64,000 nucleotides of DNA, from contig CALYOH010000002.1 of NCBI GenBank assembly GCA_945228905.1, forward strand, positions 3,706-67,705. Direction: 5' to 3'. The position numbers were made by a program, and so were the translations under genes. The notes under the pieces are model-generated. The model was given only the letters and a program-made list of their open reading frames with translations, did not search any database and was not told the origin of the DNA. The DNA comes from an uncultured Bacillales bacterium (GTDB lineage Bacteria; Bacillota_I; Bacilli_A; RF39; UBA660). Positions 43,064 through 61,657 of the stretch are shown here, piece after piece. The stretch's first letter is position 1. Each line of letters opens with the position of its first letter.

Positions 43064-43243
43064 TTAAACCTCCTTTGTCTCTTTTATCATACCATAAATT
43101 ATTAACTTATTTATTCTATTTTATTTCCAATTAATTTATGTTTAATTTCTGATTCGTTTATATACTTTTTTTTGATTTGTTTTTATAAGTTGTTTTTACT
43201 TTATATATCACTTACTCATTTCATCACAAAATTTAAATTAAAC

Positions 43244-43272
43244 AAAAAAATCACTTTTTTGAATCAGTGATC
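43244..43272 (-). terminator. Terminator downstream of ssrA
   Basis: On the minus strand ATCACT-gattcaaaaa-AGTGAT is followed by TTTTTTT. Confidence 0.5.
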
Positions 43273-43328
43273 TTCCTATATAAAACTTGACTTTCTAGAC
43301 TATCTAGATAGTTCAAGTGAAACTCTTA

Positions 43329-43714: not shown

Positions 43715-43724
43715 ATATGTACAC

Positions 43725-43753
43725 ATTATATCATATTTTTAATTGTTAATAAA
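43725..43753 (-). promoter_or_regulatory. Candidate ssrA promoter
   Basis: The minus strand reads TTTATT-N17-TATAAT with TGa extended -10, about 10 nt upstream of the tmRNA 5' end. Confidence 0.4.
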
Positions 43754-43821
43754 GTAGAATATGAAAATAACTTAAATTAATTTTTTTGTATAAATAAAAC
43801 ACTAATCATAATGAAAAGAAT

Positions 43822-44259
43822 TTAAAATCTCTTTAAATTCTTTTCAACTTCTCTTTTAATATCTCTTTCTTTAATAGATTCTCTCTTATCAAAAGTCTTT
43901 TTACCTTTACAAACTCCTAACAGTACTTTTAATTTACTATCTTTAAAATATAATTTAAGAGGGACTAAAGTTAATCCATTTAATTCAATAGCGTTTGCTA
44001 TCTTTTTAATTTCTTTTTTATGTAAAAGTAATTTTCTACTTCTAGTTTCTTCATGATTAAATATATTACCCTCTTTATATTGTCCAATAAACATATTTAA
44101 AAGAAAGACTTCATTATTTTTAACAATTCCATAACAATCTTTAATATTACAGTGTCCATTACGTACAGATTTAATTTCAGTACCAGTAAGAACAATACCC
44201 GCTTCATATTCTTCTTCTATAAAATAATCAAATCTTGCTCTTTTATTTAAAATTTCCAT
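43822..44259 (-). CDS. smpB: SsrA-binding protein
   Basis: NKRARFDYFIEEEYEAGIVLTGTEIKSVR, 145 aa, adjacent to ssrA. Confidence 0.9.
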   Translation of the reverse strand: MEILNKRARFDYFIEEEYEAGIVLTGTEIKSVRNGHCNIKDCYGIVKNNEVFLLNMFIGQYKEGNIFNHEETRSRKLLLHKKEIKKIANAIELNGLTLVPLKLYFKDSKLKVLLGVCKGKKTFDKRESIKERDIKREVEKNLKRF

Positions 44260-44268
44260 AACATCACC

Positions 44269-45480
44269 CTATTCGTAAGTAAGTCCCCATGTAAGATTTG
44301 GATAACATTCATTAACAACAGCTTTATATTTTTCATATAAATTCCAATGATTTGGTAATTGACTATCATCTAACTTAGGATATGGAATAATTCTAAACTC
44401 ATGACTATATCCATTATAGAATTTAGTTACAGTATAGAATAATTCTGCTTTAGGATCAACAACACTATTAGTAACAGTATCATCAACATCTACATGTTTC
44501 TTTAAAGTTACTTCCATAGCAAGTCCAGTATAGTTATCAACATCTAATTGATCACTTAAGAAATTACCTAAAGAATAAATTACAAATGTTCTACCTTCAT
44601 TTAGATATTCTACAGTTTGAATAACATGTGGATGTGCTCCTATTATTAAATCAACACCTAAATTTGACAAATGTGCTGCAATTTCATCTTGTTTATAATC
44701 TGTTTTAAATGAATACTCAGTTCCCCAATGCATTGCAACTATAACAAAATCAACTTTATCTCTAATAGCAGAAATATCAGCAGTTGCTTTTTCAGGACTA
44801 TATACATTATTTAAATAATCTTTACCATAAGGAGTTTCTAATCCATTAGTCCATATTGTATAAGAAATAAAAGCATACTTAATATTATTTACTTCATATA
44901 TTTTAGAAACACCAGCTGCTCTATCTTCATAACTATTCCATTGTCCAGAATAAGCTACATCAGGATGAGACTTCCAATAAGCAACAGAGTTTAATACTCC
45001 TTGCTCTCCCTTATCCATTGTATGATTAGTTGCTAGTGAAACCATATTAAATCCAGCATCTATAAAGGCATCTCCTACTTCTTGTGGAGAATTAAATCTT
45101 GGATAACTAGATAATCCCATTGCAGTTCCACCTAAAATAGTTTCTTGGTTATAATAAGCAAGATCATATTGAGATACAATTGGTTTTACATATTGAAGCA
45201 TTGGTTTAAAATCATATGAACCATCAGCTTGCTTAGCATCATTATATACTCCCCAATGTATTAAAGAATCTCCTACCATGAAAACCTTTGCTTCATAGTC
45301 AACCGCTTTCTTTTCTTCTTTTTTAGGTTCCACAACTTTTTTAGGTTCCTCTTTCTTTTTGGAAAAGTAATTTTTAGAAGCTACAAAATAAGCAGAAACT
45401 CCAATAACTACAAGCAATAAAATTAATACTAATATTTTTCCACCTTTTTTAAGTTTTCTTTTTACTTTTCTCTTTCTCAT
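44269..45480 (-). CDS. CapA-family (PGA_cap) metallophosphatase-like membrane-anchored protein
   Basis: TM anchor. MVGDSLIH, ATNHTMD, MHWGTEY and GAHPHV motifs. Confidence 0.75.
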   Translation of the reverse strand: MRKRKVKRKLKKGGKILVLILLLVVIGVSAYFVASKNYFSKKKEEPKKVVEPKKEEKKAVDYEAKVFMVGDSLIHWGVYNDAKQADGSYDFKPMLQYVKPIVSQYDLAYYNQETILGGTAMGLSSYPRFNSPQEVGDAFIDAGFNMVSLATNHTMDKGEQGVLNSVAYWKSHPDVAYSGQWNSYEDRAAGVSKIYEVNNIKYAFISYTIWTNGLETPYGKDYLNNVYSPEKATADISAIRDKVDFVIVAMHWGTEYSFKTDYKQDEIAAHLSNLGVDLIIGAHPHVIQTVEYLNEGRTFVIYSLGNFLSDQLDVDNYTGLAMEVTLKKHVDVDDTVTNSVVDPKAELFYTVTKFYNGYSHEFRIIPYPKLDDSQLPNHWNLYEKYKAVVNECYPNLTWGLTYE

Positions 45481-45481
45481 A

Positions 45482-47593
45482 TTAACACTCTACCTTCTTA
45501 ATAACTTGAAAATCAATAGTCTTTTCTTCTTTAGAAGCTCTTAATACTTTTACTTCTACTCTGTCACCTATTGAATATTTTACATGATTTTTCTCACCAG
45601 TCAAGGTCATTCTCTCTTCATCAAAATGATAGAAATCATCCATATCTCTAAAAGCAACTAAACCTTCTATTAAATTATCTAATTCAACGAACATACCAAA
45701 ACTTGTTACTGAAGAAATCATACCAATAAAATGTTCTCCTATATGTTTTTCCATATATTCAGCCATCTTCATATCTTCAACTTCTCTTTCACAGTCAACT
45801 GATGCTCTTTCTCTTTCAGAAGAATGTTCTGCAACATATACAAGTTTCTCTTCCCATTTTCTTATTGTTTGCATATCAATTCTTCCATCAAATAAATATG
45901 TTCTAAGTAATCTATGTACTGTTGTATCAGGATATCTTCTAATTGGAGAAGTAAAATGTGTATAACAAGAACTTGCTAAACCATAATGTCCTAAGTTTTC
46001 AGGTTTATATACAGCCTTCTGCATACTTCTAAGTAATAAACTAGATAAAATCTTATATTCTGGTTTATCCTCTAATTGGGCAAGTATCTTTTGCATAGTA
46101 GTAGGTTTTACATCTTTAATATTACCATTAACTTGATATCCTAAACTACTAACAAATCCTAAGAAACTTCTAATTCTCTCCTCTTTTGGATATTCATGAA
46201 TACGATAAATAAATGGTAAATTCATAAAATATATATGAGATGCTACACATTCATTAGCAGCAATCATAAAGTCCTCTATTAAGTTTTCACCTAAACCTCT
46301 ATCTCTTAAAACAATCTCAGTAGGAACACAATTCTCATCAACTAAGATTTTAGCTTCATCTACACCAAAATCAATATAACCTCTTTGTACTTTTGCTTTT
46401 CTAAGTATTTGAGCTAATTCTTCCATTAATCTTAATGTATCAGCATATTCTTCATATCCTTCAGGAACAATATTCTTCTCTAAAATACTATTTACCTTCT
46501 TATAAGTCATTTGTATTCTAGATTTTATAATACTTGGAAATATCTCATAATTTAATTGTTTACCATTACCATCAAATTCCATAACACATGATATTGCTAA
46601 TCTATCTACGTTAGGATTTAATGAACAAATACCATTAGATAACTCATGTGGAAGCATAGGTATAACTCTATCTACTAAATAAACACTTGTTCCTCTATCC
46701 ATAGCTTCATTATCAAGAGGACTTCCTTCTTTTACATAATAACTAACATCAGCAATATGTACACCTAACTCATAATGACCATTATGTAATCTCTTTACTG
46801 AAATAGCATCATCTATATCTTTAGTATCATCTCCATCAATAGTAAAAATCATTTCTTCTCTTAAATCTCTTCTACCTTTTAAATCCTTTTCAAGTACTTC
46901 CATAGGTATTTCAGAAACTTCTCTTTTTACATCTTCAGGAAAATCAACATTAATATTATATTTATAAACTATAGATAAAATATCAACTCCAGGATCATTA
47001 ATATGACCTATAATTTCAACAACTTCTCCCTCATATTTATCATCCTTAATTTTCTTTCCTAACTCAACGACTACTTTATGTCCATCTACGGCATTTAAAC
47101 TCTTATCTTTAGGAATCTCTATATCTAATTTAATCTTTGAATCATCTAAAGTAATATGTCCAACTTCATTCTTATCAAATTTAATTAAACCAATATATCT
47201 TTTAATTCTTCTTTCTAATATTTTAAGAACTCTTCCTTCTAATTTATCAAGATTCATCTTACTAGTAATTTCTACAAGTACTACATCATCATGAATAGCA
47301 CCATTCATATTATCTTGATCAATATATATATCATCTTCTAAGTTATCAACTTCTACAAAGCCAAAACCTTTTTTATTAGCTCTCATGATCCCTTTTCTTA
47401 GATGACTCTTATCAAGCATCATATATTTATTTTTATTAGAACGATATATTAAAGCTTCATCTTCTAATTTTCTTAATTCATCAGTTAATTCTTTAGTCTC
47501 TTCAACAGTCTTAATCTCTAAAGCATCTTGTATTTCATAAATATCTATAGCTTTATCAGAATTATTTAATAAGTTAATAATATTATCTCTCAT
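45482..47593 (-). CDS. rnr: Ribonuclease R
   Basis: TIDGDDTKDIDDAI and HFTSPIRRYPD RNB motifs, and a C-terminal S1 domain. Lies in the conserved secG-rnr-smpB-ssrA context. Start set at ATG 47593 (GAGGGTGA-N6). Confidence 0.9.
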   Translation of the reverse strand: MRDNIINLLNNSDKAIDIYEIQDALEIKTVEETKELTDELRKLEDEALIYRSNKNKYMMLDKSHLRKGIMRANKKGFGFVEVDNLEDDIYIDQDNMNGAIHDDVVLVEITSKMNLDKLEGRVLKILERRIKRYIGLIKFDKNEVGHITLDDSKIKLDIEIPKDKSLNAVDGHKVVVELGKKIKDDKYEGEVVEIIGHINDPGVDILSIVYKYNINVDFPEDVKREVSEIPMEVLEKDLKGRRDLREEMIFTIDGDDTKDIDDAISVKRLHNGHYELGVHIADVSYYVKEGSPLDNEAMDRGTSVYLVDRVIPMLPHELSNGICSLNPNVDRLAISCVMEFDGNGKQLNYEIFPSIIKSRIQMTYKKVNSILEKNIVPEGYEEYADTLRLMEELAQILRKAKVQRGYIDFGVDEAKILVDENCVPTEIVLRDRGLGENLIEDFMIAANECVASHIYFMNLPFIYRIHEYPKEERIRSFLGFVSSLGYQVNGNIKDVKPTTMQKILAQLEDKPEYKILSSLLLRSMQKAVYKPENLGHYGLASSCYTHFTSPIRRYPDTTVHRLLRTYLFDGRIDMQTIRKWEEKLVYVAEHSSERERASVDCEREVEDMKMAEYMEKHIGEHFIGMISSVTSFGMFVELDNLIEGLVAFRDMDDFYHFDEERMTLTGEKNHVKYSIGDRVEVKVLRASKEEKTIDFQVIKKVEC

Positions 47594-47673
47594 TAGTATC
47601 ACCCTCTATCTTAAATTATACATTAAAAACAAAGATATAACTAGTCTTTTACAAAATAAAAAGGACCCAAGTC

Positions 47674-47889
47674 CTAAATAAACATAGATATTAAACATAT
47701 TAAGAAGAATGCACAACCTAAAACAGCTGTAATTCTTGTAATAACAAGTTCTGATCCTCTTTCTTTTCTATTAGCAAAAAGCTCACTAGAACCACCTGAA
47801 ATAATTTGAGGTCCATTATCAGCTTTACTACTTTGTAATAAAACAATTATAATTAATAGAATTGAAATGATTAATAAAGCTATTTCCAT
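47674..47889 (-). CDS. secG: Preprotein translocase subunit SecG
   Basis: 71 aa from the internal ATG after GGAGGG. Two TM helices with LLQSSKADNG between them. Confidence 0.75.
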   Translation of the reverse strand: MEIALLIISILLIIIVLLQSSKADNGPQIISGGSSELFANRKERGSELVITRITAVLGCAFFLICLISMFI

Positions 47890-47950
47890 ATAATTAATCC
47901 CTCCATTTACAACACAAATATAATAACATATAAATAATATTTTTACAAGC

Positions 47951-47980
47951 AAAATAAAAAGTACATAAAAATGTACTTTT
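47951..47980 (-). terminator. Terminator ending the six-gene WXG-like array
   Basis: On the minus strand AAAAGTACA-ttttta-TGTACTTTT is followed by a T-rich run, immediately after the stop of the 47991 ORF. Confidence 0.55.
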
Positions 47981-47990
47981 ATTTAAATTA

Positions 47991-48299
47991 CTATTTAACC
48001 AGCCTATCTCTTTGTTCAATAACACTGGTATCTACAGTTTCATTAGCAGCTGAGATATTCTCTTTAACTGCATTAACTAAATTGTCTGTATTAACGGCTT
48101 TTCCATATACATTTGAGAGTTCACTTCTAAATTCACCAATCTTACCTGAAAGTCCTTTTAAGTAATTTAAATATTCAAAATTACTTGGAACAGTCATTGC
48201 ACAATACTCTTGTGCACTAGATAAATGTGATAATGAATCCTCAACCATAGGTTTAATTTTAGATGAAATACCATCATTAGGATAAATTAATTTACTCAT
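47991..48299 (-). CDS. Small alpha-helical T7SS-associated protein (no W-x-G)
   Basis: 102 aa with helical heptad-like composition. 1-nt overlap with the upstream WXG-like gene. Family not recognised. Confidence 0.5.
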   Translation of the reverse strand: MSKLIYPNDGISSKIKPMVEDSLSHLSSAQEYCAMTVPSNFEYLNYLKGLSGKIGEFRSELSNVYGKAVNTDNLVNAVKENISAANETVDTSVIEQRDRLVK

Positions 48300-48583
48300 T
48301 ATTCTTCTCCTTGCTTAGCTTTTGTTACAGTAGTATCTATCATATTAGCACTCTCTGTAATTGCTTTAGAAAAGGACTTAATTCCATCACCAACATTCAT
48401 TAGCTCATTCTTATCAAGTAAAACCATATTTACATAGTCTTTTGCTCTTCCACCTGTCCATTCTTTAGTATCAGGTAAATTAACAAACTTATTAAACAAT
48501 TCGGTAATCTTTCCTTGATATTCTGCTGCTAATGAGTTGATAGCTGCCGCGTGATTACGCATTTCTTCAGTATTTATCTTCAT
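48299..48583 (-). CDS. WXG100-like protein
   Basis: 94 aa with a central KEWTGGRAKDY (W-x-G). No gap to the upstream gene. Confidence 0.65.
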   Translation of the reverse strand: MKINTEEMRNHAAAINSLAAEYQGKITELFNKFVNLPDTKEWTGGRAKDYVNMVLLDKNELMNVGDGIKSFSKAITESANMIDTTVTKAKQGEE

Positions 48584-48892
48584 CTAATCAGCCCCTATCT
48601 CAGCTATTTTATTATGGCATTTAATAATAGCTCTATCCACAGCTGGAATAACCGTATTTTTTATAAAATTAGCAGTTGTAGTTATATCTTCTCTAACATT
48701 CTTTACATTTGTACATAGTGTACTATCATTATCATCTAATGAATAACATTCATTCAATGTTCCAGAAAAGTCATCTAAACTACCTTTAGATAAAGTTAAT
48801 TCACTTACAATACTAGAAAGATTAGCTTTAACAGCATTATATCTAGAAATAGCATTTCTATATGAATTAATAGCTTCCTCTTTTGTAGCCAT
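48584..48892 (-). CDS. Small alpha-helical T7SS-associated protein (no W-x-G)
   Basis: 102 aa with a predicted helix-loop-helix. Located in the WXG array. Confidence 0.5.
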   Translation of the reverse strand: MATKEEAINSYRNAISRYNAVKANLSSIVSELTLSKGSLDDFSGTLNECYSLDDNDSTLCTNVKNVREDITTTANFIKNTVIPAVDRAIIKCHNKIAEIGAD

Positions 48893-48915
48893 AACTACAC
48901 CACCCTTTTATTATA

Positions 48916-49377
48916 TTATCCGATTTCAACTTTAGAAGCTGCTGATGCAACATCTTCAGCATCACTTGAAACAGCTTCAGATAATGAAGTATCTCCTGAT
49001 TGATATTTTTCATAAGCATCATCAAGTTCAGTATTCCATTTTTCAACTAATTTAACATATGCATCTAATAATGATTTAGTAGATGTAATGAATTCAGTCA
49101 TAGCTGTACCAGCTTGTCCTTTGAATGTTTGCTCTAAATCAGCTGAAGTATCATATGTATCAACGATTTCTTGAACGTTAGAAGCATATGTATTGATTGC
49201 AGATTTTAAAGCCTCAAAGTTACTAACTCCTGCAAATCCTCCATCCCAGATGTTTGCAACGAAAGATCCGATATTGTTAGCCAATCCACTAACAGCTCCC
49301 CATGCAGCATCTAAGAATGAACTAATTCTTTGTCCTACTGTTGACTTAACGTCACCAATTATACTTTGAATTCCCAT
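48916..49377 (-). CDS. Extended WXG100-like protein with Gly/Ala/Ser-rich N-terminal extension
   Basis: 153 aa. The N-terminal 50 aa contain AAWGAVSGLANNIGSFVANIWDGGFAG, followed by a helical hairpin with FKGQAGTAM at the turn. Confidence 0.5.
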   Translation of the reverse strand: MGIQSIIGDVKSTVGQRISSFLDAAWGAVSGLANNIGSFVANIWDGGFAGVSNFEALKSAINTYASNVQEIVDTYDTSADLEQTFKGQAGTAMTEFITSTKSLLDAYVKLVEKWNTELDDAYEKYQSGDTSLSEAVSSDAEDVASAASKVEIG

Positions 49378-49389
49378 TAATTTCTCCTC

Positions 49390-49701
49390 CTATCTCTTTT
49401 CAATTAAATCTTGATCGATTTCAGCTAGTCCTGCAAGAACCTTTTGGAACTCAGCAACAAGTCCTTCATATGCTGCATCTAATCCTTTACAAATTTCATC
49501 AACATCATGCTCCATATTAGACATAAAGTTATTAGCAGATTGTCCAACCCAACATGCATGAACTTCGTCTCTTAAAGTAGCAAGATTATTACGTAGTGCA
49601 TTTTTTGCAGTTACAACACAATCGTTATGAACGTGGTTTAATGTTGAAACCATATTACTTTGATCGTATCCAATTGTAGCACCTTCGATACCTAAAGCCA
49701 T
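49390..49701 (-). CDS. WXG100-family (EsxA-like) protein
   Basis: 103 aa with a central ACWVGQSANNF (W-x-G). Confidence 0.75.
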   Translation of the reverse strand: MALGIEGATIGYDQSNMVSTLNHVHNDCVVTAKNALRNNLATLRDEVHACWVGQSANNFMSNMEHDVDEICKGLDAAYEGLVAEFQKVLAGLAEIDQDLIEKR

Positions 49702-49712
49702 TAAATCACCTC

Positions 49713-50096
49713 CTACATATTTTCAATTTTACTGGCTTTATCTTTTGTATCCTCAGTAATAGAATCAATTAAGAACGCAATAGTTCTATCACCTGTTCTA
49801 ACCTTATTAATAACTGCAATAAGGTCATCTGAATATGAAACAATATTATCTTTTACAATAGAATAATTCTTTTTAAAATCTCTATATTTTGTCATAAGAG
49901 CAGAATACTCATCAGACTCATAACAATTCTTTAGAGAATCCATTTTAGCATCAATCTTTGAAAAAATATCAGTAACATCTTCAGATATAGTGAGAATATC
50001 CATAGCTAAAGTAGATAAATCTTCTTCGTTAATAGCTAACTCAACATCTTCATCAGCAACTAATCCGATACTTTCTTGCATATTAATATCCTCCAT
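49713..50096 (-). CDS. Acidic WXG100-sized helical protein lacking W-x-G (first gene of the array)
   Basis: 127 aa with the turn region NCYESDEYSAL in place of W-x-G. SD GGATGGAGGA upstream. Confidence 0.5.
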   Translation of the reverse strand: MEDINMQESIGLVADEDVELAINEEDLSTLAMDILTISEDVTDIFSKIDAKMDSLKNCYESDEYSALMTKYRDFKKNYSIVKDNIVSYSDDLIAVINKVRTGDRTIAFLIDSITEDTKDKASKIENM

Positions 50097-50251
50097 CCTA
50101 AGAATACTATAGTAAGTAACTTATCCTTACTAATTTAATAATACAACACTTTTTTTATTTTAATCAAGTAAAACGACCATTCTTTACACTTAACAAGTAA
50201 AAAATTAAAAAAAGGACCTATTATTATGCTATTATAATAATAGGTGATTAT

Positions 50252-51664
50252 ATGATTGAATACACAGTAATAGGAAATTTTAAATATAGGGGACAAGAAT
50301 ATCAAGTAATGATTGATGATGAAAAAAGATATTACTTTTTAAAAATCCATCCAGATGGTTCAGAAAGTTATATAGATATACATGAATATATAAGATTAAT
50401 AAATGAATTTAAGTATAAAGAAGAACCACTATTAATTGAAGATAATAGAAAGAAGAAAAAAAGAAAACTAACACCAAAAATCATAATAGCAGGTATAATA
50501 TTAACTTTATCCCTTTCGTTTGTATCTATAATGAACTCTATGGCTCCTACAATGGACCTTCATAGTCATACAAGTGACTATTCTAATACTTCTTCGTACA
50601 CAGTACAAATAGAAGAACAAGATAATGATAAAGCTCAAAAAGCCATAGATGAACTATATAGATATATAGAACAAGAAAACCAAAACTTTAAAGTAGATAC
50701 AAGAGTAGATGGTTGGAACTTAATAAAAATATATGATAATAGTGAATTAGATGATGTATTGGGCTATTCAAGAGAAGAAATTACATATAATGATATTATT
50801 AATGATATAAATAATAATCCTCATATGTCACAAAAATTCAAAAATTTATATATCAAATTAGCAAACAATCTAAGAGAACAATATCCAAATATGGATTTAA
50901 GAATATGGCATTATAATCTACAAACATTAAAAATAGTAGAATTATCAGAAATGGATATGCAATTAAAAGCAATGAGTGGAACTGCATGTGCCGTATATAG
51001 ACAAGATGAAAATACTATTTATACAGTAGAAGGATATGATTATGTTCAAGGTACTTGGGATTATCAAGTAATAATGCATGAAATGGGTCATCCAATTAGA
51101 AGTTTAGTAACACATATTGGTGAAAATCAAGTAAAAGCAAGATTCCAATCTTATTCTGGACATGGAACAGTTATAGGAGAAGCATTAAATTCCCTACTTA
51201 CACTAAGATCATATGATCCAAATGAAAAAGATGTAGCATATCAATTCCAAAGTAATATGGTTGAATTAATGGTTAATGAAATGGATAACTACACATATCA
51301 AGACTTTGTTGAACATAATCTAACTTATTTTGAGCAACAATTAAATGAATACAACGGAAATAATGATGCAGTAGAAATCATAGGACTAATTGAATTACAA
51401 TATAATGATTATCATAACAAAGACTTTGAAATAGATGAAGCACAATTCCATAAAGTATATGATTATATAGCAAATATGTATTATGGAAATCATCTAAATC
51501 CAAATATGTCTGCTGAAGAAGCTATTAAAGTTAGAGATACATTTATAGATAAATTAACATTTGATGTCCCAGAAGAATACAAAGTAAGTATAGAACATTT
51601 AAATGAATACTTTGAAACATACTGTAACTCAATAGGATTACAACTAAATGGATACTCAAGATAA
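50252..51664 (+). CDS. Single-pass membrane protein with extracytoplasmic HExxH (putative zinc metallopeptidase) domain
   Basis: A cytoplasmic N-domain of about 75 aa, RKKKKRKLTPK, then the TM helix IIIAGIILTLSLSFVSIM, which predicts N-in/C-out by the positive-inside rule. VIMHEMGHP with Glu candidates downstream (IGEN, VIGEALNS). Confidence 0.55.
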   Translation: MIEYTVIGNFKYRGQEYQVMIDDEKRYYFLKIHPDGSESYIDIHEYIRLINEFKYKEEPLLIEDNRKKKKRKLTPKIIIAGIILTLSLSFVSIMNSMAPTMDLHSHTSDYSNTSSYTVQIEEQDNDKAQKAIDELYRYIEQENQNFKVDTRVDGWNLIKIYDNSELDDVLGYSREEITYNDIINDINNNPHMSQKFKNLYIKLANNLREQYPNMDLRIWHYNLQTLKIVELSEMDMQLKAMSGTACAVYRQDENTIYTVEGYDYVQGTWDYQVIMHEMGHPIRSLVTHIGENQVKARFQSYSGHGTVIGEALNSLLTLRSYDPNEKDVAYQFQSNMVELMVNEMDNYTYQDFVEHNLTYFEQQLNEYNGNNDAVEIIGLIELQYNDYHNKDFEIDEAQFHKVYDYIANMYYGNHLNPNMSAEEAIKVRDTFIDKLTFDVPEEYKVSIEHLNEYFETYCNSIGLQLNGYSR

Positions 51665-52175
51665 TTTAATTCTTAAAATAGCAACCATAGATGAATTAAA
51701 AGAAAAATGGGATTATGAAATAAAAAATCATAAAGGGAATATTCATTATCTTCAAGCAGCAAATGAAGCAATAAGAGAAACTAGACATGGTAATAGAATA
51801 ACATATATAGCTAAAATAAATAATCAAATAATAAGTGATATAACAGTAATAATAAAAGAAAAAGGTATTCTAAGTGAATCTAAATATACAGAAGATTTAA
51901 TATCAAATATAAGAGTATTCTTATGCGATATAAGAACTATAGAAGATTATCAAGGAAAAGGATACTTATCTAAACTATATAAATATGTAGAAAATGATTT
52001 AAAAGAAAAAGGATATAAAGAAATATCCCTATCATATGACACAAATAATATAAAAAATAAAATAATGTATACTAAATGGAATTATACTAATTTCATAAGA
52101 AGTGAAACAAGAACAAGTAATAATACAACATATACATATGATTATTATTATAAAAAAATAGACATTTTAAATTAA
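51648..52175 (+). CDS. GNAT-family N-acetyltransferase
   Basis: YQGKGYLSKLYKYVE (Q/RxxGxG/A acetyl-CoA motif). 175 aa. Overlaps the upstream gene by 17 nt. Confidence 0.65.
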   Translation: MDTQDNLILKIATIDELKEKWDYEIKNHKGNIHYLQAANEAIRETRHGNRITYIAKINNQIISDITVIIKEKGILSESKYTEDLISNIRVFLCDIRTIEDYQGKGYLSKLYKYVENDLKEKGYKEISLSYDTNNIKNKIMYTKWNYTNFIRSETRTSNNTTYTYDYYYKKIDILN

Positions 52176-52192
52176 ATGTCTATTTTATTTTT
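52152..52192. terminator. Bidirectional terminator between the GNAT gene and esaB
   Basis: ATAGACAT-tttaaattaa-ATGTCTAT is flanked by an A-run and a T-run. The loop contains the GNAT stop codon. Confidence 0.55.
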
Positions 52193-52445
52193 AGAAAAAA
52201 ACTAATTGAGATCCATTTCTTATATTTGTATCTCTAATTAATTTTTCATAAGGATAAACCTCAGAAGAAAATTTATTACATAAAGCAACAGTATCACTAA
52301 TAGGATATAACCCATTTGTATCTTCATTAATCATTTTATTAATTAATCTACATACATCTCCTATCGCTCTATTAATTGGTAAATATACTTCATAAGTTTT
52401 TTCTATCTCTGGAACAAGAATAGTAACTAATACTTTATATTCCAT
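52191..52445 (-). CDS. esaB: YukD/EsaB-like ubiquitin-fold T7SS protein
   Basis: 84 aa. The pattern YEVYLPINRAIGDVCRLI...IRNGSQLVFF matches the beta-grasp EsaB/YukD layout. TAATG overlap with the essC stop. Confidence 0.6.
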   Translation of the reverse strand: MEYKVLVTILVPEIEKTYEVYLPINRAIGDVCRLINKMINEDTNGLYPISDTVALCNKFSSEVYPYEKLIRDTNIRNGSQLVFF

Positions 52446-55400
52446 TAATCATCACCATCCATCATAGTCTTAATTAATGTATAAGTAGAATCCTTAATCA
52501 AGTAAGCCATACCAGCGTAATTGTACTTCTTATCTTCTTCAGATAAGTCATTTGTAACTAATACGGATTGAGATTCAATTCCAGGACCTAACCACATACC
52601 TTTAGTAGTATCCATTGTATTATACCAAGGTTGTAGTTTTAATAACTTAAACTTCTTATAATCATCTATTAAGAAGAATATATTTTGTTTACAATTAGCT
52701 ATTCCATTAAACATACTATCAGCAAATTCTTGACCAACTTTATCTAATTTACCTTTTATAGAACCAGCTCCAAGAATAATATTAATTGCTAAAGGTTGAG
52801 TATCAGTACGAGACTTAACATCTTTATCTATAGCAGCAAATATAACTCTTAAATCATCTTGGAATAATTTAATGTCAAGAATTGGTTTTTCAAATGCACC
52901 AAGAACATCGATTACTCTAACTACTGTGTTAGGAATCTTAGTTAATAAATTAGCAAGTGCATATATGAAAGGCATACTAGATTTCATATCTTTTGTAATA
53001 ATTGGATATAGTTTTGTTTCACTAATATCAAGTTTAGCAATATCTTTCTCATAGAAATTATATCCAATAGGTAAATCTTTAATAGTAGTAATATACTTAA
53101 CAAGATCTTCACTAGTAATATTATCAGGTATAGTAGCAATCTTCTTAGCTCTAGTAGTGTAATTATTATTAAGTACCTCTGCTACTTGCTTTAAATATGC
53201 TAATTCATTTTCAGGAGTAGTAATCTTAGCAGTTTGGAATTCAGCATAAGAATCATCATCATTAGTAACTTTACAAATTCCTCTTCCATATAAATTACTT
53301 GGAAGTAATCCCTTACGACAATTAGTTAAGTTTCTATATTGAGACTCATCTTGTAGATTTAATACTATTAATCTATTAAAGTATTGTAATACTCTTGGTC
53401 TAAATGTATTTTGAGCAGATGCAGTTAAGATAAATATAATTCCATATCTTGGAGCATCCCTGAATAAAGCATTTAAACTATCTACTACTTTAGCTAAGAC
53501 TTCTCCAAATACATCAAATGCATTAATAACTAAACATATTACTGGTAATACTTCACCACTATGAGTATTATAGTATTCTAAAGATCCATTGAAATCTTGG
53601 AATAATACTTTACGTTTATTTAATTCATCCATTACTAATTGAATAACTCCACCCACTCGTTCCATATCATCTTGGAAAACAACTTCTCCAACATGTGGGA
53701 ATTTAGCAAATTTACGTAATGTTTCAGCTCCAAAATCAAGAATATAATAATTTATCTCTTGAGGAGTATGTTCTGTCATACTAGAGAATAGTATTGAAGA
53801 AACCAACATTTCTTTTCCTGATCCAGGTTGTCCAACAATTGCAATATTACCATCAGCTATATTAACTGTAAGAATATCTTGTTTTTGTTCTCTTGGTTCA
53901 TCATATTCACCAATAACAGTAGTAAAATCTAACTTTTTAGGTTGGAAACCATATCTCTTCTTAACTTCTGTTAAATAAATATCTTCAGGAATGTTAGGCA
54001 ACCATAATTGTTGTTTAACAAACTTTTCTTCTTGAGAAATATTACTAATATATTTAACTATATTAAGTAACTCTTCTCCTTCACTCTCTTCATTCTTCTT
54101 CTCTTCAACATTATCAAAATAATTAATTATTTTACCAATATTATTAATATATTGAACAGATTGATCAACAGTATGCTTAACTATATCAGAAGGATAATAC
54201 TTAGCACCTGCCCATGCAGATTGACCTAAGTTATAATATTCATCATTACCTACTTCCAAATAGAAAGCTCCAGTTTGTTTTAAATAAGCTGCATCAGGCT
54301 TCTTTAATATTTCATTTGAATCAGACTTATCTTGAACTCTTAAACAAACTTTAAATCTTGAGTTTGACCAGATTTGATCATTAACAACTCCAGAAGGTTT
54401 TTGAGTTGCTAGAATCAAGTGAACTCCTAAAGAACGTCCGATACGTGATGTAGAAATTAACTGTTCCATAAATTCAGGTTGTTGTTGTTTTAACTCAGCA
54501 AACTCATCACAAATAATAAGTAAGTGACTTAGAGGTATATCAACAGCACCTTTTCTATAATATTGTTGATACTTATAGATATCCATTTGACCTTCTTTTA
54601 ATTTCTCACGTGCATCATTAAATATAGATTGACGTCTTTTTAATTCTGATTCAATAGATGCAATAGATCTATTAATAGCAGATTTATCAAGGTTTGTAAT
54701 TGTACCAGCAAGATGTGGAAGTTTAATACCTAACTCATGGTTCTCAAAACTCATGGCAAGACCTCCACCCTTATAGTCGATAAGTACAAATTGTACTTCA
54801 TCAGGACTAAAGTTAACAGCTAAAGATAAAATATAAGTAACAATCCATTCTGATTTACCCGAACCAGTAGTACCAGCTACTAATCCATGTGGACCATATA
54901 CTTTTTCATGTATATCCATCTTAAAAGCTTCACCATTTTGATCAATACCAATTGGTACACTTAATGAATTAACCGGATTATTAGATTTCCATCTTTCCAA
55001 ACTATTTAATTGTTCTACTCTACCAACATTAAACATTTCAAGGAATGATAATGATTTAGGTAACTCATATTTTCCTTTTTCTAGTAAAATAGGAGTATTT
55101 GCTAATATTAAAGCAACATTATACATATTAATTGGTGTAGTAAAATCAACTTGAAATTCATTCTTATCATCAAGTTTTAACTTATTAGTAAATAAACCAG
55201 ATTTCTCTTTATTAACACTAATAAAAGTATGGGTTTGATCAGGTAAAGTACTTAATCTATCATTTTCAATTAATAAAGTAAATCCAAGATTTCTCTTATA
55301 ATTTAATATCTTTTTAACTAATGAAGTACTTCTAATAGACTCAATACTATCAGTAAACAATATAAAGTATGGTTTATATTTCTTATAAGGTTCCTCAGTG

Positions 55401-57019
55401 CCATCTTCTTTTCTACCATCATCTTCTAATTGTTCAGATTCAGCTTCATCTCTTCTAGCATCAAATATAGAATCAATATCAGCACTCATCTCATTAAATT
55501 CTTCTATATTAGTAGCAAAATATCTATTATTATGTTGATTATCCCAGTTATGAGGAGATACTTTTAAATACTCCCATTTTTCTGCATTTTCAGGTGTTGT
55601 AAACACAATAAATTTCAAATCAGAATAAGGATGATATGCCATTATTTGTAAAAAGATATTATCAATTAATCTATCACAATAAACTTCTTCTCCTACAACA
55701 GCAGTAAGATTATTTTCAACCAATGAGAATGAATATGGAGAAGCATCAATATATTTAGAATCATCTAAAACAGTCTTTAATGACTTCATTAATTCATCTT
55801 CATCATTAACAGAAAACTTATCTTCTGGATATCTAACTTTAATCTTGGACTTAACAGTACCGTTACCTAAACATACTCTTAGGAAATCTTCATCATCAAT
55901 ATTCTTTTTCCATAAATCATTTTTTCTTTTTAAAATAACCTCATTAACAACATCAAGGTTAGGATATTCTTCATATAATAATTCTCTTTGTTGTACTTTA
56001 ATATTACTTATCTCAGTCTTTTTCTTTTCAAGATACTTTTTATACTTAATAACACGTTTAATCTTAGCTTTCTTAAATTGTTTCTTTTTATAGAATTTTA
56101 AAATAAATGGCCACATTACTGTTCCAGATACTAAAGCAAAAACAGTAATCATAGAAGTAAAGAACCTCATTCCATCTACTTCTCCTTCAGCATAACCAAT
56201 AATAGTATCTAAAACAGAAAAGATAGACATAACCATCATTGTAAGTTGTGGTCCTAAAGTTAATAATATAGGTGTCTCTTCTCTTTGCTCTTCTGGAGGT
56301 GGTTCATCTATTCTTACTTCTTCTTCCTCTCTTTCAGAAATAAATCTTGGAGATTTTGAAAAATAAGACTTTTTATCATATAAAGGTAAATCTTCTTGTC
56401 CCTTAGGAGAAATAAAATTACCTAAATTAGATACAGCAGTAGTAATAAATGAATTATTATTTAAACTTATTCCTCCAGGAGCAGTAATAATAAATTGTTG
56501 TCCTAAACATATAATTTTTAATCCAAAGCAAAAGATATAATCACCAGAATAAATTCTACTATCTCCAACAGGTTTATTATTAAGATATACTTTATTACCT
56601 TCAGTAGTTACTTTCCAATAACCCTCTTGATTAAAAGTAAGTCTAAATTCTTCAGGTCCAATATATGAATTTCTAAAGCAAACATCACAATTTGGACCAG
56701 AACCAACAATAATTTCTTGCTTATTAGCTTTTACAATATTAGTATCTTCATAATAAGCAGGTGTCGCAACTAAATATAAATAAGCCCCTTCAATAGAAAA
56801 AACAAAAATAGAATCACTTTTAAGTACAGGTTTATCAACTTCTTGATTACCCTTCATTATTCTTACTTCTTCAGCAGGTTTAATTCTCCACTCTCCGTCT
56901 ACCCCTTCAATACTCGCAAGCAACTTATTTTCAGTAAGTGGAATTGGATATACGCCCATTACTTTTGATGGTAAAAATATTTTTTTAAAAAAGTTGTTAA
57001 AAAAGACATTTACTATCAC
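52445..57019 (-). CDS. essC: Type VII secretion FtsK/SpoIIIE-family ATPase EssC
   Basis: 1524 aa. Two N-terminal FHA-like modules, two TM helices and three P-loop domains. D1 has GTTGSGKSE plus LLIICDEFAEL. D2 has GQPGSGKE, a degenerate Walker A. D3 is further degenerate. Apparent GTG start at 57019 after AGGGTGGGA. Confidence 0.9.
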   Translation of the reverse strand: MIVNVFFNNFFKKIFLPSKVMGVYPIPLTENKLLASIEGVDGEWRIKPAEEVRIMKGNQEVDKPVLKSDSIFVFSIEGAYLYLVATPAYYEDTNIVKANKQEIIVGSGPNCDVCFRNSYIGPEEFRLTFNQEGYWKVTTEGNKVYLNNKPVGDSRIYSGDYIFCFGLKIICLGQQFIITAPGGISLNNNSFITTAVSNLGNFISPKGQEDLPLYDKKSYFSKSPRFISEREEEEVRIDEPPPEEQREETPILLTLGPQLTMMVMSIFSVLDTIIGYAEGEVDGMRFFTSMITVFALVSGTVMWPFILKFYKKKQFKKAKIKRVIKYKKYLEKKKTEISNIKVQQRELLYEEYPNLDVVNEVILKRKNDLWKKNIDDEDFLRVCLGNGTVKSKIKVRYPEDKFSVNDEDELMKSLKTVLDDSKYIDASPYSFSLVENNLTAVVGEEVYCDRLIDNIFLQIMAYHPYSDLKFIVFTTPENAEKWEYLKVSPHNWDNQHNNRYFATNIEEFNEMSADIDSIFDARRDEAESEQLEDDGRKEDGTEEPYKKYKPYFILFTDSIESIRSTSLVKKILNYKRNLGFTLLIENDRLSTLPDQTHTFISVNKEKSGLFTNKLKLDDKNEFQVDFTTPINMYNVALILANTPILLEKGKYELPKSLSFLEMFNVGRVEQLNSLERWKSNNPVNSLSVPIGIDQNGEAFKMDIHEKVYGPHGLVAGTTGSGKSEWIVTYILSLAVNFSPDEVQFVLIDYKGGGLAMSFENHELGIKLPHLAGTITNLDKSAINRSIASIESELKRRQSIFNDAREKLKEGQMDIYKYQQYYRKGAVDIPLSHLLIICDEFAELKQQQPEFMEQLISTSRIGRSLGVHLILATQKPSGVVNDQIWSNSRFKVCLRVQDKSDSNEILKKPDAAYLKQTGAFYLEVGNDEYYNLGQSAWAGAKYYPSDIVKHTVDQSVQYINNIGKIINYFDNVEEKKNEESEGEELLNIVKYISNISQEEKFVKQQLWLPNIPEDIYLTEVKKRYGFQPKKLDFTTVIGEYDEPREQKQDILTVNIADGNIAIVGQPGSGKEMLVSSILFSSMTEHTPQEINYYILDFGAETLRKFAKFPHVGEVVFQDDMERVGGVIQLVMDELNKRKVLFQDFNGSLEYYNTHSGEVLPVICLVINAFDVFGEVLAKVVDSLNALFRDAPRYGIIFILTASAQNTFRPRVLQYFNRLIVLNLQDESQYRNLTNCRKGLLPSNLYGRGICKVTNDDDSYAEFQTAKITTPENELAYLKQVAEVLNNNYTTRAKKIATIPDNITSEDLVKYITTIKDLPIGYNFYEKDIAKLDISETKLYPIITKDMKSSMPFIYALANLLTKIPNTVVRVIDVLGAFEKPILDIKLFQDDLRVIFAAIDKDVKSRTDTQPLAINIILGAGSIKGKLDKVGQEFADSMFNGIANCKQNIFFLIDDYKKFKLLKLQPWYNTMDTTKGMWLGPGIESQSVLVTNDLSEEDKKYNYAGMAYLIKDSTYTLIKTMMDGDD

Positions 57020-57046
57020 AATATCCCACCCTATCTTCTATATAAT

Positions 57047-57075
57047 AGTATATTATTATTAAGATAATAAGTCAA
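57047..57075 (-). promoter_or_regulatory. Candidate sigma-A promoter of essC
   Basis: The minus strand reads TTGACT-N17-TATACT, located between the proS terminator and the essC start. Confidence 0.45.
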
Positions 57076-57076: not shown

Positions 57077-57104
57077 TTAAAAAAGGAAGATTAAACTTCC
57101 TTTT
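57077..57104 (-). terminator. Rho-independent terminator of proS
   Basis: On the minus strand AAGGAAG-tttaat-CTTCCTT is followed by TTTT. The stop codon of proS lies in the loop. Confidence 0.55.
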
Positions 57105-58767
57105 TTAATGCTTCTATATCATATTCTTTAATATCTGAACTAGTACGTTCTTTATATTCAACAATACCTTCAGATGCCCTTTTTCCAACAACAATTCTCT
57201 TAGGTATACCAATAAGATCCATATCTTTAAATTTAAATCCAGCTCTTGCATCTCTATCATCTAAAAGAACATCATATCCTTTATTAGTTAAATAATCATA
57301 CAAGTCATTAGCTACTCTAACTTGATCTTCATCTTTTATATTAACAATAACAATACTATAATCATAAGGAGCAACTATTTCAGGGAAAATAATTCCATTA
57401 TCATCATGATTTTGTTCAACTAAAGCAGCCATTATTCTAGCAATACCAATTCCATAACTACCCATAACTACAGGTTTAAGTTCATTATTTTCATCACTAT
57501 ATAATAATCCCATAGCTTCAGAATATTTAGTTCCTAATTTAAATGTATTACCAACTTCAATACCATGTTTAAAAGTTAATTTTTCTCCACATACTGGACA
57601 AACATCATCTTCAGTAATATTTCTAATATCTGCAACCATCTCATATTTAAAATCATCAAGATTAGTATTAATAAAATGATAATCAGTCTTATTAGCTCCA
57701 ACTAAGAAGTTCTTCATACCTTCAACTTCTCTATCAATAATTACAGGTACACTTAAATCTATAGGTCCAGCAAATCCAACCGCTGCCCCAGTAACTTCTT
57801 CATCTTCCTCAAATGTAGCCATTTCCACATTTTTGGCACCAAGAAGCTTAAGAATTTTATATTCATTTACCTCTCTATCACCTCTAACCATAAATGCATA
57901 GAACTTACCATCTACTTTATAAATCATAGTTTTACAAGTATCTTTTGCCTCAATATGATAATTATTATATATATCATCTATAGTTCCACAATTTGGAGTA
58001 TGAAGTAATTCTTTCTTTTTCTTTCTATCCTTACTAATTTCAATTTCACCATTACATTCACAAATTTCATCATTAGTAGATAAACCACATTTTTCACATA
58101 ATACTAATGTATCTTCACCAATATCAGTAATAGCTTGGAACTCTTCAGATAAAAGTCCACCCATCGCACCATTAGATGCTCTAACTATTTTATAGTTTAT
58201 TCCCAATCTATCAAATATTTTCTTATAAGCATTAAACATTAAATCATAAGACTTATCTAATCCCTCTAAATCTTTATCAAAAGTATAAGCATCCTTCATT
58301 TCAAACTCTCTAGTTCTAATAAGACCATATCTACTTCTAATCTCATCTCTATATTTATTAGCCATTTGATATATACTAATTGGCATATCTTTATATGATT
58401 TAATTAAATCTCTACAAGCTTCAACAAATAACTCTTCATGTGTTGGACCTAAAACATAATGTCTTCCAGCTCTATCATCTAAATAAAACATATCATCTCC
58501 AAACACTTCTTTTCTTCCGCTTGCTACAAAGTAATCTTCCGGTAGTAATGAAGGCATTAATAATTCTTGTGAACCAATATTGTTCATTTCTTCTCTAATG
58601 ACTTTTTCAATTTTTCTAAACACTTTAAGTCCAAGCGGTAAAAACATATATATACCACTACCAACTTTTTTAATCATTCCACTTCTAACTAATAAGTTAC
58701 CACTAGTAGAATCTTCATCTTTTGCATCTTCCTTTAATGTAATAAAATAGCCTTTACTTAATCTCAT
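57091..58767 (-). CDS. proS: Prolyl-tRNA synthetase (bacterial type with editing insertion)
   Basis: MRLSKGYFITLKEDAKDEDSTSGNLLVRSGMIKK... is a typical ProRS N-terminus. 558 aa from ATG 58767. The longer ORF in the track reads through the T-box terminator. Confidence 0.9.
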   Translation of the reverse strand: MRLSKGYFITLKEDAKDEDSTSGNLLVRSGMIKKVGSGIYMFLPLGLKVFRKIEKVIREEMNNIGSQELLMPSLLPEDYFVASGRKEVFGDDMFYLDDRAGRHYVLGPTHEELFVEACRDLIKSYKDMPISIYQMANKYRDEIRSRYGLIRTREFEMKDAYTFDKDLEGLDKSYDLMFNAYKKIFDRLGINYKIVRASNGAMGGLLSEEFQAITDIGEDTLVLCEKCGLSTNDEICECNGEIEISKDRKKKKELLHTPNCGTIDDIYNNYHIEAKDTCKTMIYKVDGKFYAFMVRGDREVNEYKILKLLGAKNVEMATFEEDEEVTGAAVGFAGPIDLSVPVIIDREVEGMKNFLVGANKTDYHFINTNLDDFKYEMVADIRNITEDDVCPVCGEKLTFKHGIEVGNTFKLGTKYSEAMGLLYSDENNELKPVVMGSYGIGIARIMAALVEQNHDDNGIIFPEIVAPYDYSIVIVNIKDEDQVRVANDLYDYLTNKGYDVLLDDRDARAGFKFKDMDLIGIPKRIVVGKRASEGIVEYKERTSSDIKEYDIEALKKEV

Positions 58768-58780
58768 AATAATACCTCCT

Positions 58781-58975
58781 AAAATTAAAAGGATGATACC
58801 AAAGGAGTGCATAATGCACGGTACCATCCTTAATTTACTCTTTTTGATAACGGTGTAGACCACCGGATTACTCTCCTAAAGCGGTAGGAATCATATTAGA
58901 TTATTAATAGGTTCACACTATCCCTATCTCACTGAAATAAGAGCTAATATAATCATGTCCTCTTTCTCGGATTTC
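58781..58975 (-). promoter_or_regulatory. T-box leader (proline-type)
   Basis: The reverse strand has AGAGA-like stem I, GGTGGTC, the candidate specifier CCU-A (GAUUCCUACC), the T-box AAGGATGGTACCGTG and the terminator GGATGGTACC...GGTATCATCCTTTT. Confidence 0.8.
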
Positions 58976-59008
58976 ATATATTGTAGCATATAACAATCAT
59001 TTAATCAA

Positions 59009-60238
59009 CTATTTACTTAATTCTTCTTCTATTCTCATTAATTGATTATATTTACAAACTCTATCAGTTCTAGACATAGATCCAGTCTTAATTTGACCTA
59101 AATCAAGTCCAACAGCTAAGTCAGCAATTGTAGTATCTTCTGTTTCTCCAGATCTATGAGAAATAACAGTAGCATAACCATTGCTTCTAGCAAGTTCAAT
59201 AGTCTCTAAAGTTTCAGTAATTGTACCAATTTGATTTACTTTTAATAAAATAGCATTTCCAGCATGTTTATCAATTCCCATTTGAAGACATTTCTTATTA
59301 GTAACAAATAAATCATCACCAACTAATTGAATCTTATCTCCTAATTTTTCAGTAATCTTAGTAAATCCTTCCCAATCATTTTCATCAACTGGATCTTCAA
59401 TTGAAATAATTGGATATTTAGAAACTAATTCTTCATAGAATTCAATTAATTCATCAGTAGTTAAACTTCTATTTTCTCCAACTAAATTATATTTTCCATC
59501 TTTATAGAATTCAGAAGCAGCAACATCAATTCCCATGCAAACGTCTTTTCCTGGTTCATAACCTGCTCTTCTAATAGCTTCCATAATTAGTTCAAATCCT
59601 TCAGTATTAGATTGTAAGTCTGGAGCAAATCCACCTTCATCTCCTACACCAGTAGCAAGACCTTGTTCATTTAAAACTTTCTTTAAATTATGGAATACTT
59701 CAGCACCAACTCTAACTCTTTCATGAATAGTATCTCTTTGAGGAATAATCATAAACTCTTGGAAATCAAGTTTATTATCAGCATGAGCTCCTCCATTAAT
59801 AATATTCATCATTGGTTTAGGTAAAGTGGTTCCATTACCAATATACTTGTATAATGGTTTACCAGCATTAATAGCACTTGCTTTTAAAGCAGCCATTGAA
59901 ATGCCTAAAATAGCATTAGCTCCATATTTAGATTTAGTTTCAGTACCATCAGCCTCAATCATAGCATAATCTAATGCCTTTTGATCTTCAGCATCCATAC
60001 CAATTACTAAGTCTCTTAATGGTCCATTAACATTAGCAACAGCCTTTAATGTACCTTTTCCAAGATATCTAGACTTATCTCCATCTCTAAGTTCTAGAGC
60101 CTCTCTTTCACCAGTAGAAGCACCACTTGGAACAGCTGCTCTACCTAAAATTCCATTTTCTAGAATAACGTCTACTTCTACAGTAGGATTACCTCTAGAA
60201 TCAAGTATTTCCCTTCCTATTACATCTTTAATTTTCAT
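59009..60238 (-). CDS. eno: Enolase
   Basis: [18 protein letters not shown] and [17 protein letters not shown]. Confidence 0.95.
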
Positions 60239-60286
60239 ATAATTACCTCCTATTTCATTATATCATTTATCAAATAAAATATACTA

Positions 60287-61645: not shown

Positions 61646-61657
61646 ATAATCTCCTTA

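Follow-up and report, generated by a model that had tools for sequence, protein, structure and literature searches.

EssA, EssB and EsaA are regarded as core components that the T7SS (type VII secretion system) of Staphylococcus and Bacillus cannot do without, and which of the proteins involved form the channel and which serve as scaffold is still unsettled. In characterised T7SSb loci the genes essB, esaA and essA lie beside essC, and the FHA-like N-terminus of EssC binds the pseudokinase domain of EssB (PMC11217815), while YukD promotes the assembly of YukB (bioRxiv 10.1101/2025.01.24.634720). The variants T7SSc to T7SSj, defined from RefSeq by Garrett, Higginson and Palmer in 2024, have the ATPase and a WXG100 protein in common (for T7SSi no such protein was pinpointed), and most of them keep a ubiquitin-like protein as well, in addition to variant-specific parts (PMC11217815). 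Our literature search turned up no variant later than T7SSj and no work on the T7SS of Bacilli of the RF39 or RFN20 type. Here we describe a group of genes around essC in a 64,000-nucleotide stretch of DNA (the window; G+C content about 27%) from contig CALYOH010000002.1 of an uncultured Bacillales bacterium, and we consider it likely that this region is a complete, self-contained T7SS cassette, of a composition not yet described and with a membrane partner that is not homologous to the known ones.

The nine genes of the cassette are as follows, with lengths in amino acids (aa) and the supporting evidence in brackets:

52445..57019, minus strand: essC, a T7SS FtsK/SpoIIIE-type membrane ATPase of 1524 aa (TIGR03928, Pfam, YukB match)
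52191..52445, minus strand: predicted ubiquitin-like protein of 84 aa, EsaB/YukD/TsxB-type (AlphaFold2 and Foldseek)
50252..51664, plus strand: single-pass membrane protein of 470 aa with an HExxH motif (alignment of 34 sequences, AlphaFold2)
49713..50096, minus strand: small helical protein of 127 aa, first of six conserved small genes (25 loci at the same position)
49390..49701, minus strand: putative divergent WXG100 protein of 103 aa with invariant W51-x-G53 (alignment; 26 loci)
48916..49377, minus strand: protein of 153 aa with a Gly-rich N-terminal extension and a WXG100/LXG-like helical hairpin (25 loci)
48584..48892, minus strand: small soluble protein of 102 aa, fourth small gene (21 loci by tblastn, 27 by clustering)
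48299..48583, minus strand: putative divergent WXG100 protein of 94 aa with invariant W42-x-G44 (alignment; Pfam WXG100 just under cutoff)
47991..48299, minus strand: small soluble protein of 102 aa, sixth small gene (18 loci by tblastn, 28 by clustering)

With the T7SSb systems (S. aureus Ess; B. subtilis Yuk, with YukE, YukD, YukC, YukB, YueB and YueC) the cassette shares an ATPase of the YukB/EssC type whose N-terminus is FHA-like and, beside it, a small ubiquitin-like protein that lacks Gly-Gly; putative WXG100-type proteins are also encoded in the locus. It differs from them in having, among the scanned ORFs (open reading frames) of the window and in the related loci, no EssB/YukC pseudokinase, no EsaA/YueB and no EssA/YueC, so that of the Yuk system the YukB-like and YukD-like parts are retained and YukC is not; instead it carries a single-pass membrane protein with a predicted extracellular HExxH domain and a set of small proteins fixed at six. 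The likeness to T7SSc-j, especially to the 'relatively simple' T7SSg and the clostridial T7SSf, lies in the combination of a TsxC-like ATPase, a TsxB-like ubiquitin-like protein and putative TsxA-like WXG100 proteins with a variant-specific set, and T7SSe and T7SSg likewise have two non-identical WXG100 proteins, as the two putative ones here. However, when the T7SSc-j parts were sought by Pfam and NCBIfam in all ten proteins of the region, the kinase TsxD, the PPM phosphatase TsxF, the DUF6382-FHA protein TsxJ, the AAA+ protein TsfV, the DUF5050 propeller TsgL, the Ig-rich TsxI and the EspG-like chaperone TsxG were all absent, and the conserved gene set holds nothing else. No metallopeptidase-like component is described in the T7SSc-j paper (PMC11217815). 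Since no published variant from T7SSa to T7SSj has this composition, the cassette would represent a further variant of the T7SS; the T7SSc-j survey covered RefSeq only, whereas the cassette is known only from metagenome-assembled genomes (MAGs).

Results

The cassette is conserved as a unit in related genomes

To see the locus in its relatives, one genome per GTDB species was scanned, and gene neighbourhoods were compared by tblastn and by all-against-all clustering of open reading frames (ORFs). The scan found 29 loci with a relative of EssC, with identities from 90% down to 37%. Every one of these loci belongs to an uncultured MAG from gut, rumen or faeces that carries the label Bacilli, Clostridium, Mycoplasmatota or Erysipelotrichaceae. 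The same order recurs at EssC identities of 45-90% in about 27 species-level genomes, namely (470-aa)-essC-Ubl-127-103-153-102-94-102, where Ubl is the ubiquitin-like gene and the other genes are given by the length of their products. The context of proS and secG is common to the window and two further loci only (L001 and L002 in our numbering), and the other loci are embedded among different housekeeping genes. A preliminary description of the window, made from its letters, had called the region a 'stripped-down T7SSb' and had listed the six small proteins and the HExxH protein merely as other candidates nearby. These genes are indeed present, but as fixed members of a cassette across about 27 genomes, which speaks for a conserved alternative composition and not for a remnant.

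One genome (L011:9989..24329) carries a tandem second copy reaching from essC through the sixth small gene, together with a single copy of the 470-aa gene. The locus L018 resembles an orthologue of this second copy. The families that recur beside the cassette (510, 740-810, 223, 379, 727 and 168 aa) were considered as hidden components and rejected, as all those scanned are housekeeping families: tRNA synthetases, ABC transporters, HtrA, GH31, TraX and an HD-domain protein.

The EssC homologues fall into two groups, a clade with at least 48% identity (at least 1539 bits) and, beyond a gap, relatives with at most 41%. Five distant loci of the latter kind (L030-L034, 36-41% identity) were examined in their 10-kb flanks with precomputed Pfam matches. 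In four of the five, essC is immediately followed by a gene for a protein of 83-86 aa (the protein of about 84 aa was checked by tblastn in three). Several proteins of about 100 aa are encoded in L030-L032, annotated as WXG100 in L031 and without a precomputed Pfam match in L030 and L032; L033 has essC and the 86-aa gene only, while L034 has the 84-aa gene and several WXG100 genes upstream. Distant loci with essC, a gene for about 84 aa and WXG100 genes thus suggest that minimal T7SS loci have radiated widely among uncultured gut Firmicutes. Some of the five also carry genes for large unannotated proteins (557 and 1233 aa) or for a DUF4176 protein. The most distant locus of the scan itself (L029:8952..22493; EssC 37% identical) has essC and the ubiquitin-like gene, followed by genes for proteins of 545, 868 and 503 aa that are interleaved with WxG proteins of about 100 aa, has no homologue of the 470-aa protein, and resembles another arrangement with large toxin-like cargo.

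EssC and the ubiquitin-like protein

The identification of essC in the preliminary description was borne out, as the full-length ORF scores above the cutoff of TIGR03928, the NCBI EssC equivalog model (945.6 bits against 778.4), and also matches Pfam FtsK_SpoIIIE (PF01580) at 5.8e-47. The nearest solved structure is that of B. subtilis YukB (9qks; 410 bits, aligned residues 65-1000), with EccC5 well under it at 146 bits, and judged by its sequence EssC itself is of the T7SSb type. Its layout comprises an FHA-like N-terminal region, two transmembrane helices (about residues 251-307) and three ATPase-like domains. Two FHA domains had been read earlier in front of the same helices and ATPase domains; the latter two elements stand, while hidden Markov models (HMMs) detect one FHA domain only (PF00498, residues 104-162), at a borderline 20.9 bits against a cutoff of 20.7, and a canonical Walker A is confined to ATPase domain 1 (GTTGSGKS at residue 716, invariant in 29 orthologues). 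Residues 701-950 are 89-95% conserved. The P-loop of domain 2 is degenerate (GQPGSGKE at 1063), a motif pattern search found no P-loop in domain 3, and, on an informal look at the sequence, the Arg, Ser and His that would bind phosphothreonine could not be made out in the FHA region. The idea that essC might be a pseudogene, raised in the same description, is contradicted by the intact ORF of 1524 aa and the invariance of Walker A.

The gene directly after essC in 28 of the 29 loci encodes the 84-aa protein, and the two genes overlap in the window as TAATG, as had been noticed before, so that they would be translationally coupled. The ubiquitin fold proposed for this protein from the letters also held, as the AlphaFold2 model, built on an alignment of 29 homologues, is a beta-grasp with a predicted local distance difference test score (pLDDT) of 95.3, and in the PDB Foldseek ranked the EccD5 ubiquitin-like domain of the ESX-5 complex first (E 6.4e-6, TM-score 0.77), with the EccD1 ubiquitin-like domain also among the structural matches. 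The C-terminus (...LVFF) is without Gly-Gly; the protein matched no family by sequence in Pfam, NCBIfam or the PDB, and its homologues likewise have no Pfam domain. A sequence link to YukD was sought and rejected, since none emerged from Pfam, NCBIfam or PDB profile searches and the fold alone connects the two. With high confidence the product is predicted to be a ubiquitin-like protein of the EsaB/YukD type.

EssB, EsaA and EssA are missing from the locus and its relatives

Pfam was run on 60 ORFs of the window, including all those of at least 90 aa with a predicted membrane helix and all those of at least 700 aa, and no match to YukC/EssB, EsaA/YueB or EssA was found among them. Ten flanking ORFs in 41348..47952 and 57091..63115 were searched with NCBIfam (E <= 1e-5), nine of them with NCBIfam only and that at 44269..45480 with Pfam as well; there was no EssB, EssA or EsaA match among the ten, and no T7SS match among the nine. 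The ORFs of at least 700 aa encode a leucyl-tRNA synthetase (LeuRS), a GH31 protein, two RNase R/RNB proteins and EssC, and within the nine-gene cassette no gap is roomy enough for an additional gene. The earlier observation that no recognisable EssA, EssB or EsaA occurs in the 64 kb is thus upheld for the scanned membrane and large ORFs.

The comparison of essC neighbourhoods, which gave one gene order, likewise revealed no EssB-, EsaA- or EssA-like gene within 10 kb of essC in the 29 close loci, and no Pfam match to YukC, EssA or EsaA was present within 10 kb in the five distant ones. Among 307 non-core flanking ORFs, none with the size and topology of EssB or EsaA matched a T7SS family; those of such size are ABC/FtsX proteins, a histidine kinase, a MatE fusion and a Ppx/GppA phosphatase, together with one ORF of 366 aa without a Pfam match. 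In the search for EssA, a very divergent member of the family would be hard to detect. We also considered that a wall-less, Mollicutes-like lineage would have no need for a wall-spanning EsaA. This was rejected, as genes for MurD, VanY, a FemAB-family protein, NlpC/P60 proteins, a MurJ-like flippase, and a sortase together with its pilin-like substrate are present in the window; the organism is hence walled, and the lack of EsaA is not accounted for by a missing wall. As T7SSc-j are already an established non-canonical class, the lack of EssA, EssB and EsaA is less surprising than the preliminary description had assumed.

A membrane-anchored HExxH protein beside essC

In the window and 23 loci, the 470-aa gene is the immediate neighbour of essC or of the ubiquitin-like gene. 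Its placement takes three forms: upstream in the same orientation, upstream in divergent orientation, or, as the window shows it, downstream and inverted. In this count, L004 and L020 are cut by contig ends. The N-terminal part of the protein consists of a conserved, predicted cytoplasmic segment (about 55 aa), the basic run RKKKKRK and one transmembrane helix (about residues 77-97), after which a variable linker leads to a C-terminal domain of about 320 aa that contains the HExxH motif and, 29 residues on, EA(L/M)NS. By the positive-inside rule, this domain would lie outside the cell. Throughout an alignment of 34 sequences with identities as low as 30%, the residues H276, E277, H280 and E310 are invariant. 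AlphaFold2 modelled the C-terminal domain with a pLDDT of about 90, and the N-terminal domain with about 75 as a beta-rich fold of four strands and a helix.

The homologues have no Pfam domain and, where named, are called 'hypothetical protein'. Foldseek gave no significant match to the fold in the PDB or BFVD, and a profile search against PDB sequences found nothing; the proposals that the protein is an analogue of the EssB extracellular domain, of EccB or of a known protease were consequently rejected. The top matches of the Foldseek search, weak as they are, are zinc proteases, led by anthrax lethal factor (E 0.17) and followed by PepO, neprilysin and Zmp1. Three longer, distant family members match the Pfam zincin model MPTase-PolyVal, one of them (P0239) with 28.7 bits against a cutoff of 27.5 and the other two below it. 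An exhaustive profile search returned 609 clusters at E <= 1e-3, many of which cover the C-terminal domain only. From these sequence comparisons, the extracellular domain can be read as a new zincin-like family, one branch of which would have gained a cytoplasmic N-terminal domain and become linked to essC. A rank correlation between the identities of the 470-aa protein and of EssC to the window proteins was uninformative (rho -0.09), since roughly the same distance separates most of the loci from the window. We regard the 470-aa protein as a candidate cassette-specific partner of EssC.

Possible functional analogies, without homology, are offered by two hydrolases of known systems. MycP of T7SSa is likewise single-pass anchored with its active domain outside the membrane (PMC11217815), and EssH, a wall hydrolase that also has its active domain outside the membrane, is recruited by the T7SSb of S. 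aureus as a separate protein (PMC13059805). In contrast to the 470-aa protein, which is zincin-like and has an N-terminal helix anchor and a cytoplasmic N-domain, MycP is a subtilisin-like serine protease with a C-terminal helix anchor, and EssH is a peptidoglycan hydrolase.

Six small proteins

None of the six small proteins contains a hydrophobic segment, and all are helical and without a signal peptide. The WxG motifs of the 94-aa and 103-aa families are invariant across 21-22 orthologues, and both proteins score below the Pfam WXG100 cutoff of 27.3 bits (24.9 and 16.6, respectively). In profile searches against the PDB, the 103-aa family gave weak full-length matches to EsxA (3zbh and 2vs0; E 0.006-0.009) and the 94-aa family weak full-length matches to EsxB and EsxA. 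When profiles were compared with hhalign, the 127-aa and 153-aa families proved related (probability 86.6%), as did, more weakly, the 103-aa and 94-aa families (49.9%). Sub-threshold matches were further obtained to ESAT6_2 and WXG100 for the 127-aa protein, and to LXG (1.9e-5), DUF6507 and WXG100 for the 153-aa protein, whose N-terminal extension of about 50 aa is Gly-rich and amphipathic with a conserved GGFxG. To judge from their sequences, the 94-aa and 103-aa proteins are putative divergent WXG100 proteins, and the 127-aa and 153-aa proteins are mutually related and LXG/ESAT-6-like. The two 102-aa families had no Pfam match and no family assignment.

Genomic setting and other features of the window

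Three further features of the cassette region are the following:

51648..52175, plus strand: GNAT acetyltransferase gene (175 aa), overlapping the 3' end of the 470-aa gene (Acetyltransf_1, 8.4e-8)
57047..57075, minus strand: promoter-like hexamers TTGACT-N17-TATACT upstream of essC (sequence read)
52157..52184, no strand: AT-rich 11-bp hairpin with A/T runs on both sides, a possible bidirectional terminator (sequence read)

The GNAT gene occurs in the window, L001 and L003 only, and is thus a lineage-specific insertion and not a core gene of the cassette. The hexamers had been taken as a promoter of essC's own, and they do exist, followed by a GGTGGG ribosome-binding site and the GTG start of essC; however, promoter-like matches in this AT-rich stretch are no commoner than chance (63 found, 71.9 expected from shuffles), so the hexamers are not evidence for a promoter. 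Similarly, the hairpin that had been described as a bidirectional terminator is present between the convergent 84-aa and GNAT genes with its A/T runs, but a consensus terminator scan did not flag it, on account of too few G-C pairs. The placement of the cassette in the preliminary description, between proS and secG-rnr-smpB-ssrA, was confirmed: proS, eno and murD lie on one flank, and secG, rnr, smpB and the transfer-messenger RNA (tmRNA, 43329..43714) on the other.

A second T7SS-related island, which had not been remarked before, is situated at 7309..13277, about 40 kb from the cassette. It contains three canonical WXG100 genes (99, 100 and 95 aa; 7309..8290, minus strand), two of which (within 7309..7925) pass the Pfam cutoff, and, directly upstream of them, genes for five modular proteins (8302..13277, minus strand). 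In four of the five, the C-terminus is that of a peptidoglycan hydrolase (two NlpC/P60/endolysin-like, one phage tail lysozyme and one glucosaminidase); the remaining protein, of 382 aa, had no C-terminal match, and all five share and swap helical N-terminal domains, one of them WXG100-like. By its domain composition the island has a polymorphic T7SS effector/toxin architecture, with the modular proteins as probable T7SS cargo, which suggests that the system is in use. A FemAB-family gene (PF02388, 4.7e-74) adjoins the island at 5212..6561 on the plus strand; if its product acts like the lysostaphin immunity factor, it could shield the producer through a change in the peptidoglycan cross-bridges.

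Elsewhere in the window, a 427-aa surface protein with a thioester domain and SpaA fold is encoded at 31037..32841 on the plus strand, followed by a 175-aa sortase, which together resemble a pilin- or adhesin-type operon. In addition, two RNB-domain exoribonucleases are encoded less than 10 kb apart (37072..39324 and 45482..47602, minus strand), one of them RNase R (TIGR02063, 835.8 bits) and the other a 750-aa paralogue that clusters with RNase R.

Discussion

From the gene content, conservation, folds and motifs observed here, we infer by analogy how channel formation, docking, protease activity and cargo might be arranged. As in the structures of T7SSa and T7SSb, EssC would oligomerise, its transmembrane helices would form the channel and its ATPase domains would drive export, while the ubiquitin-like protein would stabilise the assembly of EssC as YukD does for YukB. 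The 470-aa protein may fill the scaffold place of EssB, EssA and EsaA, using its small N-terminal domain to dock at the cytoplasmic face, and may supply an extracellular metallopeptidase activity for substrate processing or passage through the wall. The small proteins would themselves be exported, probably as pairs, and act as co-secreted partners for cargo encoded elsewhere, for example the WXG-linked peptidoglycan hydrolases at 7.3-13.3 kb. In its boldest form the proposal would be that EssC and the ubiquitin-like protein suffice for the channel, and that in this clade one unrelated single-pass protein replaces EssA, EssB and EsaA together, docks on EssC with its small cytoplasmic domain and places a new zincin protease at the outer face of the channel; this we put forward as a tentative possibility. 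If true, the cassette would be a T7SS subtype beyond a-j and the simplest known system for reconstituting type VII secretion.

The preliminary description had left two options, namely that the missing parts are encoded elsewhere or that this lineage runs a minimal EssC-centred machine, and the comparative evidence favours the latter, with non-homologous partners. An ordinary T7SSb with essB, esaA and essA at another genomic locus would accord with an EssC that passes the T7SSb EssC equivalog model, is closest to YukB and has kept the FHA-like N-terminal region, which binds EssB in T7SSb (PMC11217815), and the absence of these genes refers to the scanned ORFs of the window and the 10-kb flanks of the related loci. 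However, in characterised loci the three genes sit beside essC (PMC11217815), none of them occurs within 10 kb in the 29 close and five distant loci or among the scanned ORFs of the window, and the cassette moves between chromosomal contexts as a fixed unit, so that we consider it unlikely that the components are encoded elsewhere in the genome. A decaying or silent T7SSb that has lost its membrane components appears very improbable: the canonical components are absent and the lineage looks like reduced-genome, host-associated Bacilli (27% GC; relatives all gut or rumen MAGs), but nine ORFs are intact and keep their order while EssC differs by up to 55%, the Walker A, HExxH and WxG motifs are invariant, and one genome (L011) has duplicated the cassette.

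Greater weight, though still on the unlikely side, attaches to the explanation that the machine consists of EssC and the ubiquitin-like protein, and that the 470-aa protein is a co-located accessory, such as a surface protease or an enzyme of wall remodelling or substrate maturation. Several observations pull in this direction or weigh against a complete cassette with the 470-aa protein as its membrane partner. The 470-aa gene is absent beside essC in four of about 28 informative loci (L018, L024, L026 and L029), and no family member is encoded in the five distant loci, which points to a clade-specific addition; with the gene missing in clade loci and in distant minimal loci alike, the protein may be accessory and not core. 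Its extracellular domain belongs to the larger family of 609 clusters, many of them without the cytoplasmic N-domain, and one distant member (P0062) is encoded far from any T7SS gene. S. aureus T7SSb, moreover, recruits EssH as a separate hydrolase (PMC13059805). The best Pfam match of the protein itself, Reprolysin_5, is far below threshold (E 0.049), and together with the lack of a fold match this leaves its motifs as the basis for a putative peptidase activity. The reading as a complete cassette is further weakened by the sub-threshold HMM support for WXG100 in the small proteins and the origin of all cassette members from MAGs. Against an accessory role, the gene has kept its place right beside essC or the ubiquitin-like gene in 23 loci as well as the window, although its placement and orientation come in three forms, and the T7SS-linked form has a conserved cytoplasmic N-domain, which a purely extracellular enzyme would not need. 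We view the 470-aa protein as the probable non-homologous membrane partner within a self-contained T7SS cassette.

The cassette has been kept intact without EssA, EssB and EsaA across dozens of species of gut Bacilli, and even simpler relatives have essC, a ubiquitin-like gene and WXG100 genes only, which points to EssC and the ubiquitin-like protein as the conserved engine of the system; the cassette also offers a small, defined set of genes for heterologous reconstitution. With it, the known range of T7SS variants reaches into uncultured gut lineages with reduced genomes, outside RefSeq-based surveys, and a family of zincin-like proteins with a membrane anchor, so far uncharacterised, comes into view. 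The cassette and the peptidoglycan-hydrolase genes in its vicinity, taken together, suggest that these bacteria use type VII secretion against neighbouring bacteria.

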